Source of the DNA: a virus
Taxonomy: Duplodnaviria > Heunggongvirae > Uroviricota > Caudoviricetes
Virus record (IMG/VR): IMGVR_UViG_2531839666_000021
Location: 1 to 10,930 of that record
DNA: 10,930 nt
Direction: 5' to 3' (one strand)
Part shown: positions 1 to 7,901 of the stretch, piece after piece
How the letters are laid out: every line of letters begins with the position of its first letter
Position numbering within the stretch: position 1 is the first letter of the stretch
Position numbers and translations under genes: made by a program
Notes under the pieces: model-generated
Seen by the model: only the letters and a program-made list of their open reading frames with translations
The model's database searches: none
What the model was told of the DNA's origin: nothing

Positions 1-2087
1 ATGTTTGCTTCAGTTAAAGAGCTGGTTGGATTACCGGGAATGCCGGGAACGGAGCAAGGCGTCCGCTATTCAATCAGGAAGTATGCAACCAGCGAAACCA
101 GCAGACGCCGCCAGGAAGGCAGTAAAGGTTTTGAATACAGCATCGACTGTTTACCTGAAGTGACGCAGCAGGCATTACGTGAACGCTACGCCCTGCAACT
201 GATGACTCAAAAAGTCGATGAATCACCGGCTCCAGTGGTGACAAAGGCCAGACGCTCGCCTGCCGTGGTTGATGCGGTGGAGGCATATCGCGGATCACCA
301 CAACTGATGGTTGAACGCCTTAATGCCCTGACCGAAAAACAGCGTCAGGTGGCTGATGCACGCATTGCGATTGTCAGCGAGGTGCTGAAATTCGCGCAAC
401 AACCCGGTTTCAGCTGCGCTAAAGCCATCCGTTTTATCGTTGACCGCCTGTCACGCTCACAACTGGACGAGCGCATTGTGGCAATGGTTGAGACGGCGAA
501 CGCCAAAAAGGGAAACCGACGAGCGTTGAGTGAAATCACGCTGAAACGCTGGATTGCGGCCTTTAACAAGGCACAGAACGCCGCTGAACGCCTGCTTTTA
601 CTGGCACCGGGTAAACGCCAGGAAATAAAAGCCGAAGATATTAACTGGCTGCCCGATTTTCTGGCGCAGTATCGCCAGTCAAACGGCCGACCAATGACCG
701 AGGCTTACGAGGATTTTGTTGCCGAATGGCAGCACCGGCACGCTGATGAGCCTTATATGCTCGATATCATGCCGTCTTACGACACCATCCGCCGCGCAAT
801 GAAGAAACTGCCGGAAGTGGTGAAACAAAAAGGCCGGGTGACAGGCAGTGAATACCGTCAGCTTGAGGGATTCACGCGCCGCGACTGGTCAAAAATGCCG
901 GTGAATTATGTCTGGATTGGTGACGGTCACGGCATGAAGCTGAAATGCGCACACCCGGTTCACGGTCGGCCATTTGCACCGGAAGTGACCTTTGTTATCG
1001 ACGGTGGCACGCGCTTTGTGGTGGGCTGGAGCCTTGACCTGGCTGAAAATGTTTTCGCCGTAGCCGGTGCCATACAGCACGGCATTCGCCATCACGGCAA
1101 ACGTTTCTGTATTACTCGGATAACGGCTCCGGGGAAACCGCCGACATCCTGGATAAGGAGGTTGTGGGGATACTGCCGCGACTGGGGATTAATCACCCGA
1201 CCGGGATTGCCGGTAATCCGCAGGGACGAGGCATTATCGAACGGCTTAACCGCACATTACCGATGCGCATAGCCCGTAAATACCGCACCTATTTCGGGAA
1301 AGGTGCAGATCGCGAGACGTTACGCAAAACCAACCGCGATTTACGCTCGGCATTTACTGCCCTGCAACAGGGCAAACGGCTGAACGCCCGGCAGCAGTCA
1401 GCGATGCGTGATTTACCGTCCTGGTCTGAACTGATTGATGCCATTCGTGACGGTGTTGAGTGGTACAACAACCGGCCGCACGATGAATTACCGGTGAAGC
1501 CGAACGGCAAGCATTACAGCCCGGCGGAGTTCAGAAAAAAACGCCTGGCGGAAGAGGACACGGAAATTGAATGGCTGTCCGATGTTGAGCTGCGGGATAT
1601 GTTCCGGCCGATGGTGGAACGCCCTGTAAGACGCTGTGAAATACGCTGGCTGAATAATATTTACTACGCGCCCGAGCTGCGTGATGAGCATGGCCGCAAG
1701 GTGCTTATCAGCTATGACATTCATGATGCCGAACGAATTACCGTACGTCGCCTGGATGGCAGCGTGATTTGCGAGGCGGTATGGGACGGTAATAAACGCG
1801 AAGCCTTCCCGGTTAGCGCGGAATACTACAAACAGCAGCAACGCCTTAAAGGCATGCGTAAACGCGCAGAGGAAAAAATCCGTGATGCCGAGGATGAGGT
1901 TGTCAACGTGCTGGAGCACAAGCCGCAGGAGCCCTGGCTGGAAAACATCTATCGCCCGGTAGGTAATACGGTGGCCGTTCAGCAACCTGCCGTTGATGAT
2001 GAGCCTGATGAAGAATACGAGCGCAATTTCCAGCGGGGATTGCAGTTGCTCGAAGCGAAATTAAAAGAAAATGACCCGCTGGCCTGA
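1..2087 (+). CDS. Mu-type DDE transposase (MuA-like); reading frame interrupted by a 1-bp frameshift near 1087-1091 (pseudogene or sequencing indel)
   Basis: Frame-1 ORF 1-1272 plus frame-3 reading open from 1047 (track ORF 1164-2087, GTG). N-terminus MFASVKELVGLPGMPGT resembles the MuA N-terminal region. Candidate DDE residues are split across frames: VWIGDGHG (frame 1), YYSDNGSGE (frame 3, about 1110-1136), GIIERLNRTL (frame 3). C-terminal RLDGSVICEA...EYYKQQQRLK resembles the MuA C-terminal domain. Frame switch is required between HGI (1078-1086) and PSRQ (1089-1100). Confidence 0.85.
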
Positions 2088-2157: not shown

Positions 2158-3091
2158 ATGACTGATATTAACGATGTAATCAAGACCATTGATGAACTTA
2201 TTGATGGCGGCGTACTGACGCAGTATGCCATCGCCAGAGAGGCGGGAATTTCCGACGGCACATTATCGGCTTTCCGCAAGGGGAAATATAAAGGCGATAA
2301 CGCCGCTGTGGCTGCTTCCCTGCGTTCCTGGTATGAGAACTGGAATAAACAAAGCGCACTGCCGGAACCGCCGCAGTTTGTGGAAACGCAGACAGTTCAG
2401 GAGCTGCGCGCACTGTTTCAGGCGGTTCGCCTGATGGGCTGTATTAACGTCATTGTGGGCGTGCCGGGGGTAGGTAAAAACGGCCACCGCCCGTAATTAC
2501 TGCCAGGAGCAACCAAACACCTGGATGATCACCCTGTCACCCGCGCACTCCAGCGTCACGGAGTGTCTGCTGGAGCTGGCCGATGCGCTGGGGATTGATT
2601 ACACCCGCGCGAACAAAGGGGCATTATCCCGCGCCATCCGCCGTCGCCTGATGGGAACGCGTGGACTGGTGATTGTGGATGAGGCGGATCATCTTGGTAT
2701 TGACGGTCTGGAGCAACTCCGGGCAATTCAGGACGCCACGGGGATCGGGATGGTGCTTATTGGTAACCCGCGCGGATTGTTTAAAGGTGGACGCCGCGCC
2801 TTTGATGATTTATCGCGCCTGTTCAGCCGTCTTGCCCGTACAAAACAACTTCGCAAGGCCAAAAAGGCGGATGTGCTGGCCATTGCCAGGGCATGGGGTA
2901 TCAGTGGTGAGGCCGAGCTGGCCGTCATGCAGGCTATCGCTGAAAAGCCGGGAGCGTTACGCGTTCTGACACATACGCTTAACCAGGCGTGGCTCACCGC
3001 CAGCGGTGAAGGTGCGGCGCTGACAGAAAAACATATTAATGCGGCCTTTAAAGAGGTTTATACCAACCCTGAATTACTCTCACAGGTGTGA
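2158..3091 (+). CDS. MuB-like AAA+ ATPase (transposition target-DNA activator B); frameshifted at A5 run 2476-2480
   Basis: RBS GAGAGG 2144-2149, ATG 2158. Frame-1 ORF 2158-2496 ends GVPGVGK-NGHRP*; frame 2 continues KTATARNY...WMITLSP to stop at 3091. The joined product has Walker A GVPGVGKT and Walker B LVIVDEADHL and resembles MuB over its N-terminus and core. Confidence 0.85.
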
Positions 3092-3315
3092 TTATGGCGG
3101 TATTTTATATTCCTGATATTTACGGACGCTTTTACCTGGTTAATTTCGATAACGTGAAGGTGATTTCACTGGCCGAAAATAAAGAATGTGGCGATTTACT
3201 TTTTGAATTTAATGACCGCACACGAATGGTGATATCTGCCGGACTTGATCGCGAAGGTGCGACAGAAGTTTACAGCGGAATATGCCGTTCTGTTGGTGCG
3301 AAACAAGTCAGCTAA
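3088..3315 (+). CDS. small hypothetical protein (73-75 aa) immediately downstream of B; occupies the position of kil in Mu
   Basis: ORF with GTG 3088 or ATG 3094, overlapping the B stop (3089-3091); AGGTG at 3084-3088. No recognisable motif; the Kil suggestion is positional only. Confidence 0.5.
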   Translation: MIMAVFYIPDIYGRFYLVNFDNVKVISLAENKECGDLLFEFNDRTRMVISAGLDREGATEVYSGICRSVGAKQVS

Positions 3316-3327
3316 ATGAGGTGTTAT

Positions 3328-3429
3328 ATGAATATGCAATCCTGCGGTAACAAAATGAATTTATTCGACTCCCTGAACAGCGCGCGCCGTCTGACCGAAC
3401 TTGCCGGTGCGGTACTGGAAACGCAGTAA
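3328..3429 (+). CDS. very small hypothetical ORF (33 aa)
   Basis: ATG 3328 preceded by GAGGTG 3318-3323; product MNMQSCGNKMNLFDSLNSARRLTELAGAVLETQ. May be part of a longer frameshifted gene together with the frame-2 reading 3377-3580. Confidence 0.3.
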   Translation: MNMQSCGNKMNLFDSLNSARRLTELAGAVLETQ

Positions 3430-3581
3430 GCGCTACCACACGTTTTGCACTGAAACCACGCCGCCGGTAGGCAACGTGCAGGGAACCGGTGAAATTGAAA
3501 TCACCATACAGACCAACGGCCTGCGCCGCCGTGTGAAGGCCACCCGCATCAGCGGCTGCACGGTTTACTGGGAGGTGTGAG

Positions 3582-3863
3582 GTGAAAAAAAATCTCATTG
3601 CATGGGCGTGGTCGAGTGGTCTTATTGAGTTTGGTTACGTCCTGCCGGAAGGTGCATTGCCGATAGTTGCCGGAAAGCCTGCCACGGTACGGCATGTGAT
3701 TGAGGTTATGGCGCGTCATGGACGTGATGAACAGGAGCAGTTACTGGTTCCGGGGATACCGGAAGCGGTGACGGAGGAAGAAGCCTTTAATGCCATGATT
3801 CGGTTCTGCCGTGAGGTCAGACGCCGGGTCAGTTATCCAAACAGAACGAGGACCAGAGGATGA
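3582..3863 (+). CDS. hypothetical protein (93 aa)
   Basis: GTG 3582 with GGAGG 3571-3575 at a 6-nt spacer; stop overlaps the next start (ATGA at 3860-3863). Confidence 0.55.
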   Translation: MKKNLIAWAWSSGLIEFGYVLPEGALPIVAGKPATVRHVIEVMARHGRDEQEQLLVPGIPEAVTEEEAFNAMIRFCREVRRRVSYPNRTRTRG

Positions 3864-4132
3864 GTAAAGTCGTACGCATTATTTTCGAATACAAGGAGCA
3901 CGTTATCCATAAAAACGCTGATGGAACAGTGCGCATGGGGGTAAGTCTGGACATACGTTCAACCGGGATAAAGCAGAAAGGTGATGGACCCGCCATGATT
4001 TTTGGAGTGGTTATGCTCGCGGAAAGCAGAGACTTTGCTGAACTTGTGGCAATGAAAGCCAGAGCGCTCATGAAAGATATGAACATGAGTTCCGGGGTTA
4101 TTAAAGGTAATGAATTTAATCAGCAGGGGTAA
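3860..4132 (+). CDS. hypothetical protein (90 aa), member of a tandem paralog pair
   Basis: ATG 3860 in an ATGA overlap with the upstream stop; RBS AGAGG 3855-3859. N-terminus MSKVVRIIFEYKEH is shared with the next ORF. Confidence 0.55.
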   Translation: MSKVVRIIFEYKEHVIHKNADGTVRMGVSLDIRSTGIKQKGDGPAMIFGVVMLAESRDFAELVAMKARALMKDMNMSSGVIKGNEFNQQG

Positions 4133-4136
4133 TTCC

Positions 4137-4430
4137 ATGAGCAAAGTACGCGTTATTTTTGAATTTGAGCATGTTTCGCATGACGAAAAACCGGCAGGCA
4201 ATGACAGTGTTGAAGTGCATGAAAAGATTGGAGTGGATGTGAAAACAGAACGTGATACGGATAACAGGCCGACGTCACTCTGTGACGTTTATGCAAGCAT
4301 TCTCCAGTATCACAGTCCTGTAATTATTCAGTTTCTCTCAGCGGAATTTCAGGCATCTGTACAGGCTTTTGGGGCGGATGCCATCATTAAACGCCACCGC
4401 GTGCATAAAGCATCAGGCACACTGCAATAA
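4137..4430 (+). CDS. hypothetical protein (97 aa), paralog of 3860-4132
   Basis: ATG 4137 (the track ORF starts at 4110, but ATG 4137 follows the upstream stop at 4130-4132 and a G-rich RBS 4126-4129). N-terminus MSKVRVIFEFEH. Confidence 0.55.
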   Translation: MSKVRVIFEFEHVSHDEKPAGNDSVEVHEKIGVDVKTERDTDNRPTSLCDVYASILQYHSPVIIQFLSAEFQASVQAFGADAIIKRHRVHKASGTLQ

Positions 4431-4440
4431 GGAAAACAAA

Positions 4441-4970
4441 ATGGCTAAACGTGTTACAAAATTAAAGGCCGCAGCCGAGGCTGCACCGCAGACCCGTGAA
4501 GAGGTCAGCCGCGATATCCGCACCCTGGGCGATATTCAGCGAGAGGCGCTGCGCCTGGAAACAGCGATGAATGATGAAGTGGCAGAAATCACCGCCCGTT
4601 ATACGCCGCAGATTGAAAACCTTAAAAAGAAATCAAAGTGCTTTTTAAGGGGATTCAGGACTGGTGCAAAACCAACCGTGATGAGCTGACGAACGGCGGC
4701 AAAACCAAAACTGCCAATCTGACCACCGGAACGGTGTCATGGCGACTGGGGAATCCATCATGCAGCGTCAGTCGTGATGTGGAAGGTGTGATTGAAATGC
4801 TGCGCCGTATGGGGCTTGAGCGATTCATCCGCACGAAAGAGGAAGTGAACAAGGAAGCCGTCCTGGCGGAGCCGGATGCGGTGAAAGGCATTGCCGGTAT
4901 AAAGGTGAATAAAGGCGCTGAAAGTTTTTATGTCGAGCCTTTTGAACAGGACGCCGGACTGAATAAATAA
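4441..4970 (+). CDS. gam: host-nuclease inhibitor protein Gam (Mu Gam family); frameshifted near 4624-4629
   Basis: RBS AAGGA 4429-4433, ATG 4441. Frame-1 part MAKRVTKLKAAAEA...LRLETAMNDEVAEIT and frame-3 part (from 4626) KEIKVLFKGIQDWCKTNRDELTNGGKTKTANL...FIRTKEEVNKEA...PFEQDAGL both match the Mu Gam pattern as I recall it; the join requires one extra base in the A5/G run 4624-4629. Confidence 0.85.
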
Positions 4971-5067
4971 CACCACATTAAATCTTTAAATATCACATCG
5001 TTTTAATTATGGCGCTCGCGTCAGGGGACTGCCTGCGCCTGAAAGCTGAAAATAAGGAATCGGAAAC

Positions 5068-5610
5068 ATGGCATATTTTTATTTCAAATTAGACATAGTG
5101 TACACAAATAAATATTTCACCGAATATCAGCGGGATGTTTTACCGCTACGCAACAGTATTCTTCGGGCATTACTGAAAAATACAGGCGCTGCCGGATTGC
5201 GCTTAAAGCCGTTCGCCATGGACGTAATCAGTGAGTTTTATTTTTCTGGTTCTCTGCCTGCGGGCTGGCGTAAGCGCGATGATGTGGCTTTTATCGGGGA
5301 CGGACCGTGCTTTATTGCCAGACCTGATGAGTTATGCCCTGAAGGACCGGCGATTGCCGCAATGGTTGAAGCCGCTGAACGCGATTTAAGAAAGCATCCT
5401 GATTTCCTTGTCTGGCTCTGTGAAAAGCTGGGGGTAATGAGAATCCCCTCCATGTTTAACACGGACTCCTGGTGGACCCCTTCGTTCTCCCGTGATGCCC
5501 TGTGCGTGGTGTTTAAAGTGGGCGCTTATGGCAGGGAAATAAACGGGTGTATTCCTGAAGAATGCCAGGAAATTAAACATTCTGAATATGTGGCGCTGAC
5601 GGAGGAATAA
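5068..5610 (+). CDS. hypothetical protein (180 aa)
   Basis: ATG 5068 with AAGGA 5054-5058; strongly AT-rich 5' end; no recognisable motif. Confidence 0.5.
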   Translation: MAYFYFKLDIVYTNKYFTEYQRDVLPLRNSILRALLKNTGAAGLRLKPFAMDVISEFYFSGSLPAGWRKRDDVAFIGDGPCFIARPDELCPEGPAIAAMVEAAERDLRKHPDFLVWLCEKLGVMRIPSMFNTDSWWTPSFSRDALCVVFKVGAYGREINGCIPEECQEIKHSEYVALTEE

Positions 5611-5620
5611 TTCATGATTG

Positions 5621-6145
5621 ATGCAAAAGTGCTTGAGGGTTAAAAACTGGCTGCGTATTTACGGACGTCTGACCTGCGGCATTCTGGCTGAAAAAATGAA
5701 TATGCCGCCATCCTCGATGGTTTATTTTCTGCGTGATGCGGTCGATGCCGGGGTGCTGACGGAATGTAACGGTTTTTATGATATTCCGCGTCCCCGCCCG
5801 GTGCAGCCGGTTCGTCGCAAATGCAGCCAGGAAGGTGCGGCTGATGATGTTCAGTGGTGCAGCTTCAGAAAGTCCCTGCCGTGGATTGAGGGGCATGATA
5901 TTCCGTCGATGGCGTGGGAATTTGCTCAGGGCGTACTGACCTGCGAAACCGTTTATGTGGTGGCTGAAGTTGATGAGCAGGCCATGAAAGAAGGTGTACC
6001 CCAGTTTGTGATGGCGTATATCGACATACGCCTGGGTGTCATTATCTGCGGTTTAAGCGGCTGGAATATCACCGGACATGTTCTGCGTTACCTGATTGTT
6101 GACCGGACGGCTGCACCTGCCGGGATATCTGCGGAGGTGGCGTAA
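5621..6145 (+). CDS. hypothetical protein (about 174 aa) with a possible winged-helix-like N-terminus
   Basis: Frame-3 ORF, TTG 5618 or ATG 5621. N-terminal segment LRIYGRLTCGILAEKMNMPPSSMVYFLRDAVDAGVLTE looks HTH-like. The start is uncertain (see finding on the SD at 5601-5606). Confidence 0.5.
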   Translation: MQKCLRVKNWLRIYGRLTCGILAEKMNMPPSSMVYFLRDAVDAGVLTECNGFYDIPRPRPVQPVRRKCSQEGAADDVQWCSFRKSLPWIEGHDIPSMAWEFAQGVLTCETVYVVAEVDEQAMKEGVPQFVMAYIDIRLGVIICGLSGWNITGHVLRYLIVDRTAAPAGISAEVA

Positions 6146-6660
6146 TGTTCTTTAAAACATCAAACCCTTCCGCGCTGGCTGCGTGGCAAAAATACCAGCA
6201 GGACTACAAGAAAGTTAAGGATGAGGCAAAACGTCTTGAGGCCGTGCTGAATGTTGATTGTCGGTCGGTATTTGTATCCGGTATCAATGGTTTTTATTTT
6301 AAAGGACTGCGTTTTACGGATAACAAATATCCTTTTCATCGCGACTTATGGCGAAAACCGACTGCGTCGAATGGCTGGAGCTGCACGCCGCGCACATCGT
6401 GTATTCCCAAAGCCCTGTGCGCTGCCTCTGACGAACTTAACAGTCTGTGGCGTGAATATTCGCCCGTCACGTATGCCAGAACCGATGCCCTGTTGTTCTG
6501 GCTGGGTATTGATTTCTCGGCAATCCTGTTTGGCCCTGTGGAGTGGTTCTGCGTTGACGATGTGATTTACCTTCAGTGCGGCGTAAAACCCGCAAAACAG
6601 AAAATGACCGAAATTCTGTCTGATGAGTTTTATGCTGCTGAAAAGCGAGTCAGGGGGTGA
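6145..6660 (+). CDS. hypothetical protein (171 aa)
   Basis: ATG 6145 overlaps the upstream stop by 1 nt (TAATG); no recognisable motif. Confidence 0.5.
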   Translation: MFFKTSNPSALAAWQKYQQDYKKVKDEAKRLEAVLNVDCRSVFVSGINGFYFKGLRFTDNKYPFHRDLWRKPTASNGWSCTPRTSCIPKALCAASDELNSLWREYSPVTYARTDALLFWLGIDFSAILFGPVEWFCVDDVIYLQCGVKPAKQKMTEILSDEFYAAEKRVRG

Positions 6661-6663
6661 TGT

Positions 6664-7215
6664 ATGATGATTTTACAACCCATGGGGAGAAAAGGCCGTG
6701 CACCCGCTCATGTCCGTGCGTGGACACCTGAAGAAGATGCACTGCTGATTGCGCTTTATCCATCCACCCCGGTTAAGGATATTGCTGTCAGGGTAAAAAG
6801 AAGTTTCTGGGGTGTACATAACCGGATTGTTTTATTACGCGGTACTTACCCGGAGTTGCTCAAATGCAAACGTCCAAGATTTAAACATGATGAAGATAAA
6901 TTTATCCGAAAAAATGCCAGAACGATGACCGGTAAGCAAATAGGAGAATATCTGGGGCGAGACCGGGATTCTGTCCACAAACGGGCGCGATATATTGGCG
7001 TAAGCATGAAAAAATACGGAGAGTTGCTGCCCTTCACCCGTATACCTGATGATGATGTTCATCTTATTCGTGAATTACGGGATGCTGAATCACCACGACG
7101 TCTTACCTTCCGGGAAATAGGCGAGAAATTTGAATTATCCGAGAGTACGGTGAATTTTATTTATCACCATCGCCGGACTGCCGAAGATGTTGTATTACGG
7201 GAGTTAATGCCATGA
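6664..7215 (+). CDS. putative DNA-binding protein with repeated Myb/SANT-like or GcrA-like HTH motifs
   Basis: RBS GGGGG 6654-6658, ATG 6664. Motifs AWTPEEDALLIALY, MTGKQIGEYLGRDRDSVHKRARYIGVS and LTFREIGEKFELSESTVNFIYHHRR. First gene of the AT-rich island. Confidence 0.55.
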   Translation: MMILQPMGRKGRAPAHVRAWTPEEDALLIALYPSTPVKDIAVRVKRSFWGVHNRIVLLRGTYPELLKCKRPRFKHDEDKFIRKNARTMTGKQIGEYLGRDRDSVHKRARYIGVSMKKYGELLPFTRIPDDDVHLIRELRDAESPRRLTFREIGEKFELSESTVNFIYHHRRTAEDVVLRELMP

Positions 7216-7427
7216 TAACGACATTATTTGTTGAATCAGACGAGCCTCTGGTATGTGCCGCCGGAATGTCGGTTTGTGGCGGAACGCTGACCGGTGTTTA
7301 TTTCGGGGATTTGCGCGGTTATCCCTGGCATTCACTGGATGACGCATTTCCGCCTGATATGGAGGCAGTCGTGCTGATTGTTCAGTATGGTGCAACAGGA
7401 ACTGCGCATCGGCCATATGGGGTATGA
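7212..7427 (+). CDS. hypothetical protein (71 aa as given; probably 103 aa, 7212-7521, if one G is removed from the G4 run at 7419-7422)
   Basis: ATG 7212 in an ATGA overlap with the upstream stop. Frame 1 continues from about 7417 to the stop at 7519-7521, which would create an ATGA overlap with ATG 7518. Confidence 0.45.
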   Translation: MITTLFVESDEPLVCAAGMSVCGGTLTGVYFGDLRGYPWHSLDDAFPPDMEAVVLIVQYGATGTAHRPYGV

Positions 7428-7493
7428 AGGCTTTTTTATTGATGAAGAAACCGGAGCCTGCCTTGAAGATGAGGACGGACAGGTGACGCACTG

Positions 7494-7901
7494 GTGCCAT
7501 ATTTCAGCTTTACCGGAATGACGGGAGGTGAATGCGTGAGAAGTTATATTGATAATGAAAAACTGAAGACAATCAGCGACTGTCTTAGCTTGCTGGCAAA
7601 AATAAAAGAAACCATTGAAGAGATTAAATTTCAGCTTGAATACGCACCCTGTGGTGATGATACATGGCGTAACTCTGCCAGAAAAGCACTGGCTGTCTTT
7701 CAGAAACAACGCCGGACTGTTGAATACCGCCTTGCTGTATTACGCCAGGAGGAAAAGGAAAGAAATATAAGATGTCACGAGCGCGTTAATAACTTCCTTG
7801 TTCGTGAATTAAAGAACGTGTGCCGGAGTCGGTATTTTTTGAGTGTGAGGCTGTTGCCCGTAGCAAAGCACTGGAAACTGATTAAACAGGCAGGTGAATG
7901 A
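7494..7901 (+). CDS. hypothetical protein, predicted coiled-coil-rich (122-135 aa depending on start)
   Basis: Frame-3 ORF; candidate starts GTG 7494 (SD AGGTGA 7481-7486), ATG 7518 (ATGA coupling if the upstream frameshift is corrected) or GTG 7536 (SD GGGAGG 7523-7528). AT-rich. Confidence 0.5.
   Translation: MPYFSFTGMTGGECVRSYIDNEKLKTISDCLSLLAKIKETIEEIKFQLEYAPCGDDTWRNSARKALAVFQKQRRTVEYRLAVLRQEEKERNIRCHERVNNFLVRELKNVCRSRYFLSVRLLPVAKHWKLIKQAGE

Follow-up and report, generated by a model that had tools for sequence, protein, structure and literature searches.

The transposase of phage Mu, MuA (NP_050607.1; PDB 1TNS, 1BCO/1BCM, 4FCY), is built from an N-terminal DNA-binding domain, a DDE core and a Mu-transpos_C domain, and its gene is followed by one for a B-type AAA+ protein. 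The window examined here, by which we mean the whole 10,930-nt stretch of viral DNA that was analysed, shares this domain plan and gene order, although overall identity between MuA and the A protein of the window is just 23%, and the D-to-E spacing is 56 in MuA but 40 residues in the window. The transposases A of the Pseudomonas phages D3112, DMS3 and MP22 are homologous to that of the window over ~90% of the length at 30–31% identity (E ~1e-79, tblastn), and that of phage VW-6B over ~90% of the length at 47% identity (tblastn). The D3112 group and VW-6B retain the sequence motifs surrounding D308, D374 and E414. In all four phages the transposase gene is uninterrupted; their hosts and phage genera differ from those of the window.

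Much closer matches were found among Mu-like prophages of E. coli. Megablast matched its first 3.2 kb, and then all 10.9 kb of the window, in about 230–250 complete E. coli genomes, with identity reaching 98.5%; the closest intact relatives, with an unbroken A gene (e.g. WP_042957518.1, from O157:H7 strain Z1825, NZ_CP062717.1), showed 98.1–98.5% DNA identity over its full length. Two records of Stx phages annotated with an inserted Mu-like phage also matched in the megablast search, the inserted phage (LC727881) reaching the same 98.1–98.5% over the 10.9 kb. These relatives and the window have in common the gene order A, B, kil, gam, gp11/gp12-like genes, gemA, mor, lysozyme and Rz/Rz1, and their A protein is 695 aa long, as is that of the window once repaired. 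Relative to them, the window alone has lost one nucleotide in A and gained one in B, and it carries ~12 more private indels. Sp18, a Mu-like prophage of O157 Sakai whose lineage may differ from that of the window, is described as intact, spontaneously inducible and packaged (PMC2669165). In a search of representative genomes for related loci, only two distant ones were found, at 74% identity.

Judged by these matches, the window is assigned to a Mu-like transposable prophage of a type common in E. coli, of which it covers the early (left) region. The window begins at the start codon of A and includes neither the left and right ends of the phage nor the repressor/ner regions. In the relatives, A carries the RefSeq label 'Mu transposase C-terminal domain-containing protein', and the genes after it encode, in order, an AAA family ATPase, Gam, gp16/GemA, Mor, lysozyme and Rz/Rz1. 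The window likewise has a MuB-type AAA+ ATPase gene adjacent to A and a set of Mu-like early genes (kil, gam, gemA, mor and lysozyme in the colinear relatives); gene names for the window were taken from Pfam labels of the relatives. The features on which the analysis turns are as follows.

1..1102, + strand: 5′ part of the A gene, in frame 1; codons 1–367 and the first base of codon 368, with the Mu-type N-terminal DNA-binding domain and the first catalytic Asp, D308 (nt 922–924)
1102..1103, + strand: frameshift site, one C lost from a CC in codon 368, from alignments to intact relatives
1103..2087, + strand: 3′ part of the A gene, in frame 3, with its stop at 2085–2087, from translation; D374 (nt 1119–1121), E414 (nt 1239–1241) and the Mu-transpos_C domain
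2158..3091, + strand: gene for the MuB-type AAA+ transposition ATPase (B), frameshifted, read as ORFs 2158–2496 and 2525–3091
3419..10886, + strand: ~12 further private indel events, from pairwise and panel alignments

The first-pass annotation of this DNA had described a MuA-type DDE transposase split between frames 1 and 3, and translation of both frames agreed with that description. Frame 1 starts with an ATG at nt 1, translates as ...GWSLDLAENVFAVAGAIQHGIRHHGKRFCITR... and stops at 1270–1272, giving an ORF of 423 aa. Frame 3 has a TGA at 1044–1046 and is open from 1047, reading KCFRRSRCHTARHSPSRQTFLYYSDNGSGE...; it carries ...HSPSRQTFLYYSDNGSGETADILDKE... and is stop-free up to the TGA at 2085–2087. 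The third frame has many stops across the gene. In the relatives, A is one unbroken 2088-nt ORF of 695 aa, or, in a variant whose N-terminus differs, of 696 aa, and in all relatives examined it is a single ORF of 694–696 aa. Both halves of the window's gene match this single unbroken ORF, by which the split is judged not to be a chance pattern.

The lesion itself was located in DNA alignments with three intact relatives, where the sole gap in the A gene was one C of a CC at window position 1102/1103, in codon 368 (Pro). At this point the relatives read AAACCG and the window AAACG (in longer context, GGCAAACCGTTTC and GGCAAACGTTTC, respectively). With the C put back, the protein was exactly 695 aa long, matching the earlier estimate that restoring one base would give about 695 aa; the junction after this repair is GIRHHGKPFLYYSD, within the longer stretch ...GIRHHGKPFLYYSDNGSGE... 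of the restored protein. The first-pass annotation had, however, placed the lost base in a CC run at 1087–1091 (CC at 1089–1090), and the true site is 12–15 nt downstream, so that a read check of 1080–1095 would miss the lesion. A repair at 1087–1091 was rejected from the alignments and translation, as it gives GIRPSRQTFLYY, found in no relative, whereas all relatives read GIRHHGKPFLYY; the junction it would create is GIRPSRQTFLYYSD. That annotation had also considered an outcome that would count against it, in which the frame-1 continuation is the conserved one and the second Asp lies elsewhere. Frame 1 is conserved through RHHGK, 12–15 nt beyond the point given in that annotation, and the second Asp is D374 in frame 3.

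Domain searches with the restored protein supported its placement with MuA. Pfam identified an N-terminal HTH_Tnp_Mu_1 domain (PF02316, E = 8.2e-8, residues 6–141) and a C-terminal Mu-transpos_C domain over the full length of the profile (PF09299, E = 1.4e-17, residues 532–592), and the structure of the MuA N-terminal domain, PDB 1tns, was matched with E = 2.5e-5. The catalytic core was less readily recognised: in a plain sequence search of the PDB, MuA (1bcm) was barely detected (E = 0.01) and retroviral integrases scored better. The DDE assignment therefore rests on the alignment to integrases and on a six-sequence MAFFT alignment that includes MuA.

The catalytic triad of MuA consists of D269, D336 and E392. 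In the six-sequence alignment, D308 and D374 of the restored protein are invariant columns that fall on MuA D269 and D336, the identity of the two MuA residues being confirmed by position; alignment to the MuA family had been the check named by the first-pass annotation, and it placed the second catalytic Asp in frame 3, as that annotation had it. Four of the five aligned transposases share E414, which is offset by three columns from MuA E392. In a phmmer search against the PDB, residues 362–425 aligned with RSV/ASV integrase, with D374 and E414 on D121 and E157, in a numbering for which we assume that the 1C0M construct begins at residue 49. By its N-terminal domain, DDE triad, Mu-transpos_C domain and adjacent MuB gene, the gene is thus classed on sequence as that of a MuA-type transposase.

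As written, the gene departs from a MuA-type transposase gene in not being a single ORF, since it is split at 1102/1103, six codons upstream of the second catalytic Asp. The DDE triad is present after the missing C is restored and is absent from either single frame. The central proposal of the first-pass annotation, that the frameshift parts the first Asp in frame 1 from the second Asp and the Glu in frame 3, was upheld; with D308 separated from D374 and E414, neither piece could be an active transposase. The sole downstream start codon in frame 3 is a GTG at 1164, which is beyond D374.

A two-frame gene could in principle be functional. Frames 1 and 3 might be joined by a programmed −1 ribosomal frameshift, as in IS3 or IS1, or the 423-aa fragment, comprising the DNA-binding domains and the first Asp, might act as an inhibitor of transposition. 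Passage from frame 1 to frame 3 does need a −1 shift, and the overlap at 1047–1272 is long enough to hold a signal. In other systems, shortened transposases are known to inhibit transposition. However, no in-phase X XXY YYZ slippery heptamer occurs in 1047–1272, the split is not conserved, A being a single ORF in all relatives examined (274 places in E. coli and 19 aligned loci), and 13 other frame-breaking indels lie in unrelated genes of the same window. A functional role for the split in either form is accordingly very improbable, and programmed −1 frameshifting, with neither a slippery heptamer nor a conserved split, was effectively excluded.

The deletion was private to the window in every collection searched. 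It was present at 0 of 274 matching places in 230 complete E. coli genomes, where the best identity at the lesion was 101/102 with the gap as the only difference. A frameshifted 30-mer across the lesion had no exact match in GTDB representative genomes, IMG/VR or JGI metagenomes, and megablast against phages, plasmids and complete E. coli genomes returned no sequence identical to the window.

A similar lesion was found in the next gene. Alignment of B to the relatives identified an extra A, AAAA becoming AAAAA at 2476–2480, within the Walker A codons GVPGVGKT. The restored B protein, of 310 aa, matched Phage-MuB_C (2.5e-25) and AAA_22 in Pfam. The remaining private indels are spread over the rest of the window.

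~3419, 3437, 3439 and 3452: kil-like gene (~3328–3580), four indels within 34 nt (+1, −1, −1, −1)
~4623: gam
~5636: gp11-like gene
~7392 and 7810–7816 (about 7813): two hypothetical genes
~8696: gene upstream of gemA
~8982 and 9195: gemA, +1 then −1, 213 nt apart
~9239: intergenic T5 run
~10886: Rz1

In total, 10 of the 22 genes in the window are broken, A and B included. Over the whole window, BLAST against the best relative gave 184 mismatches and 20 gap openings, and most of these gaps were one-base changes in short runs, mostly inside genes. Approximately 11 of the 14 events are deletions, for the most part one-base contractions of A, T, C or G runs of 2–6 nt. Several indels nevertheless fall outside long homopolymers (a CC, AA runs, a 2-nt AC deletion and a T insertion), so that no single sequencing platform is indicated. 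The four indels in the kil-like gene are accompanied by two apparent substitutions in 3419–3452; the sequence here looks locally unreliable, and the changes do not look like independent mutations. The first-pass annotation had singled out the A-gene lesion as notable in itself, but ~14 private indel events, this one included, are spread across the 10.9 kb. The relevant explanation is therefore an artefact or wholesale decay, and nothing specific to the transposase.

The window was aligned first with seven relatives and then with 19 relatives from independent assemblies. In the final panel, 17 indel columns (about 14 events) and 12 substitutions were private to the window, two of the substitutions lying inside the indel cluster, while the 19 relatives pooled had 296 private substitutions and no private indels, with 0 in each (Fisher p = 2e-18 for the indel versus substitution contrast, window against relatives). 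Between ~1000 and 4500, a stretch of 3.5 kb, only 7 substitutions but 6 gap columns separated the window from the segment-wise closest relative. The neutral indel:substitution ratio is roughly 1:10 in E. coli mutation-accumulation data. If that ratio applies, the binomial probability of 14 indels among 24 private changes is ~2e-9; at a ratio of 1:3 it is still 5e-4. In an exact-protein look-up, five ORFs created by the frameshifts were absent from an index of 153 billion genes, in which one intact ORF of the window was found in 130 blocks.

These data suggest that the C missing from A was most probably lost in sequence determination, with no mutation in the DNA itself. Gene-fragmenting errors in long-read assemblies are mostly false deletions in A/T-rich homopolymers of 2–8 nt (PMC12007338), and the indels of the window, mostly short-run deletions, match this profile. 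They resemble the indel errors of long-read or other low-accuracy assemblies, such as those described for the Kastor tool (PMC12007338), in the excess of single-base indels, in false deletions at short A/T-rich homopolymers and in the fragmentation of conserved genes, and differ in that some fall outside homopolymers. The combination found here, an excess of private single-base indels across unrelated genes with substitutions still under purifying selection, is the one expected of an artefact of indel miscalls.

The same lesions could instead be real. The deletion would then belong to a defective, decaying prophage whose A and B genes, together with many further early genes, were inactivated by frameshifts, leaving a grounded Mu-like element no longer able to transpose or replicate. 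The lesions are present in the sequence as given, frameshifted defective prophages are common in E. coli O157 (PMC2669165), and the bias towards deletions also fits natural bacterial mutation. B has, moreover, been inactivated naturally and independently in prophages seen in short-read assemblies, by three different nonsense changes and one 1-nt deletion; these natural knock-outs, however, keep every other gene intact, unlike the window. Real decay is also difficult to reconcile with the balance of changes, since 14 private indel events stand against only ~10 clean private substitutions, which are still enriched for synonymous changes (6 of 10 are synonymous third-position changes). The pN/pS of the window against relatives was 0.18–0.25 (given as 0.19), resembling the 0.14–0.15 between intact relatives, and there were no nonsense substitutions in the reference frame in the window. 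No IS insertion, large deletion or rearrangement was found, the window being colinear with its relatives from end to end, and four indels in 34 nt are hard to explain as independent mutations.

The low pN/pS, the lack of nonsense substitutions and the synonymous character of the private changes indicate that selection acted on this lineage until essentially the present. Long-term decay as a pseudogene was judged unlikely from pN/pS and from the indel:substitution ratio, and overall we consider real decay of a defective prophage an unlikely account of the deletion. Real frameshifts might also have come in a burst of −1/+1 mutagenesis in a freshly grounded prophage (for example, by an error-prone polymerase on replicating Mu DNA), disabling A, B and eight further early genes nearly simultaneously, with the 423-aa fragment retained as a DNA-binding inhibitor of incoming Mu-like phages; we find this hardly credible.

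The identity of the gene, its exact lesion, the uniqueness of that lesion and the window-wide excess of private indels are established, and from these we infer that the indels arose in sequencing and not in the cell. On the preferred reading, a base-calling or consensus miscount of a short run would have dropped one C at 1102/1103. Frame 1 as written consequently ends in a 423-aa product bearing the first Asp only, and D374, E414 and the C-terminal domains are stranded in frame 3 without a usable start. The real A gene would probably be intact, and the real phage would probably transpose as its relatives do.

If the split were taken at face value, A, B and eight other genes would be annotated as pseudogenes and the phage called defective. 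Going by the comparisons above, the phage probably remains intact and able to move, as do its relatives, which are present in hundreds of E. coli genomes, many from Shiga-toxin-producing strains. Were the lesions true, it would be one more defective prophage, a well-known outcome. Phages of this type are common and have RefSeq annotations already, and there is nothing new under either explanation, each of which leaves a known gene carrying a trivial lesion. The lesson is that a single frameshift should be weighed against the surrounding density of indels before it is given biological meaning.

The natural losses of B were observed in the related prophages L012 (~9990), L013 (~9975), L014 (~7405) and L017 (~330), the changes being TGG to TAG, CAG to TAG, CAA to TAA and a 1-nt deletion in GGG. 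In each case A and the other early genes are intact, and all four changes lie no more than ~60 nt upstream of an internal ATG. The assemblies were found through an exact match to the 188-aa C-terminal ORF of B, and this clustering is probably an effect of searching by that downstream ORF. As read from these assemblies, the four cases show that loss of B recurs naturally in this phage type.

Variation among the relatives was also seen in the small gene 3′ of B (window 3088–3315), which is 73 aa in the closest relatives of the window. It was called as just 45 aa, or missed in gene calling, in L025 and L029 (8024–8161) and in L027, L031, L032 and L033 (~8024–8250), relatives that are otherwise intact. 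This gene may be dispensable or variable.

Several features of the alignments may reflect exchange between prophages. Window positions 1 to ~131, in A, match only a subset of the relatives, those with a 695-aa A, a 76-aa Ner-like HTH protein and a 186-aa repressor; in the remaining relatives, A is 696 aa long and differs at its N-terminus, and the ner and repressor module is of another kind. From this pattern, the immunity/left-end module appears to have been exchanged, with the breakpoint within A. When the window was compared with the first seven relatives, substitutions were densely clustered at 333–858 and 5042–5135, those in A mostly at third codon positions, and were no longer private once relatives with the same hyp6 variant were added. 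The likely source of the two patches is thus mosaic recombination among lineages of Mu-like prophages, as opposed to errors.

Finally, the draft contigs L015, L016, L018 and L019 start almost exactly at window position 2523–2525. This point, inside B, is where Mu-like prophages become near-identical in sequence, which suggests that these genomes hold more than one such prophage copy, collapsed in short-read assembly.
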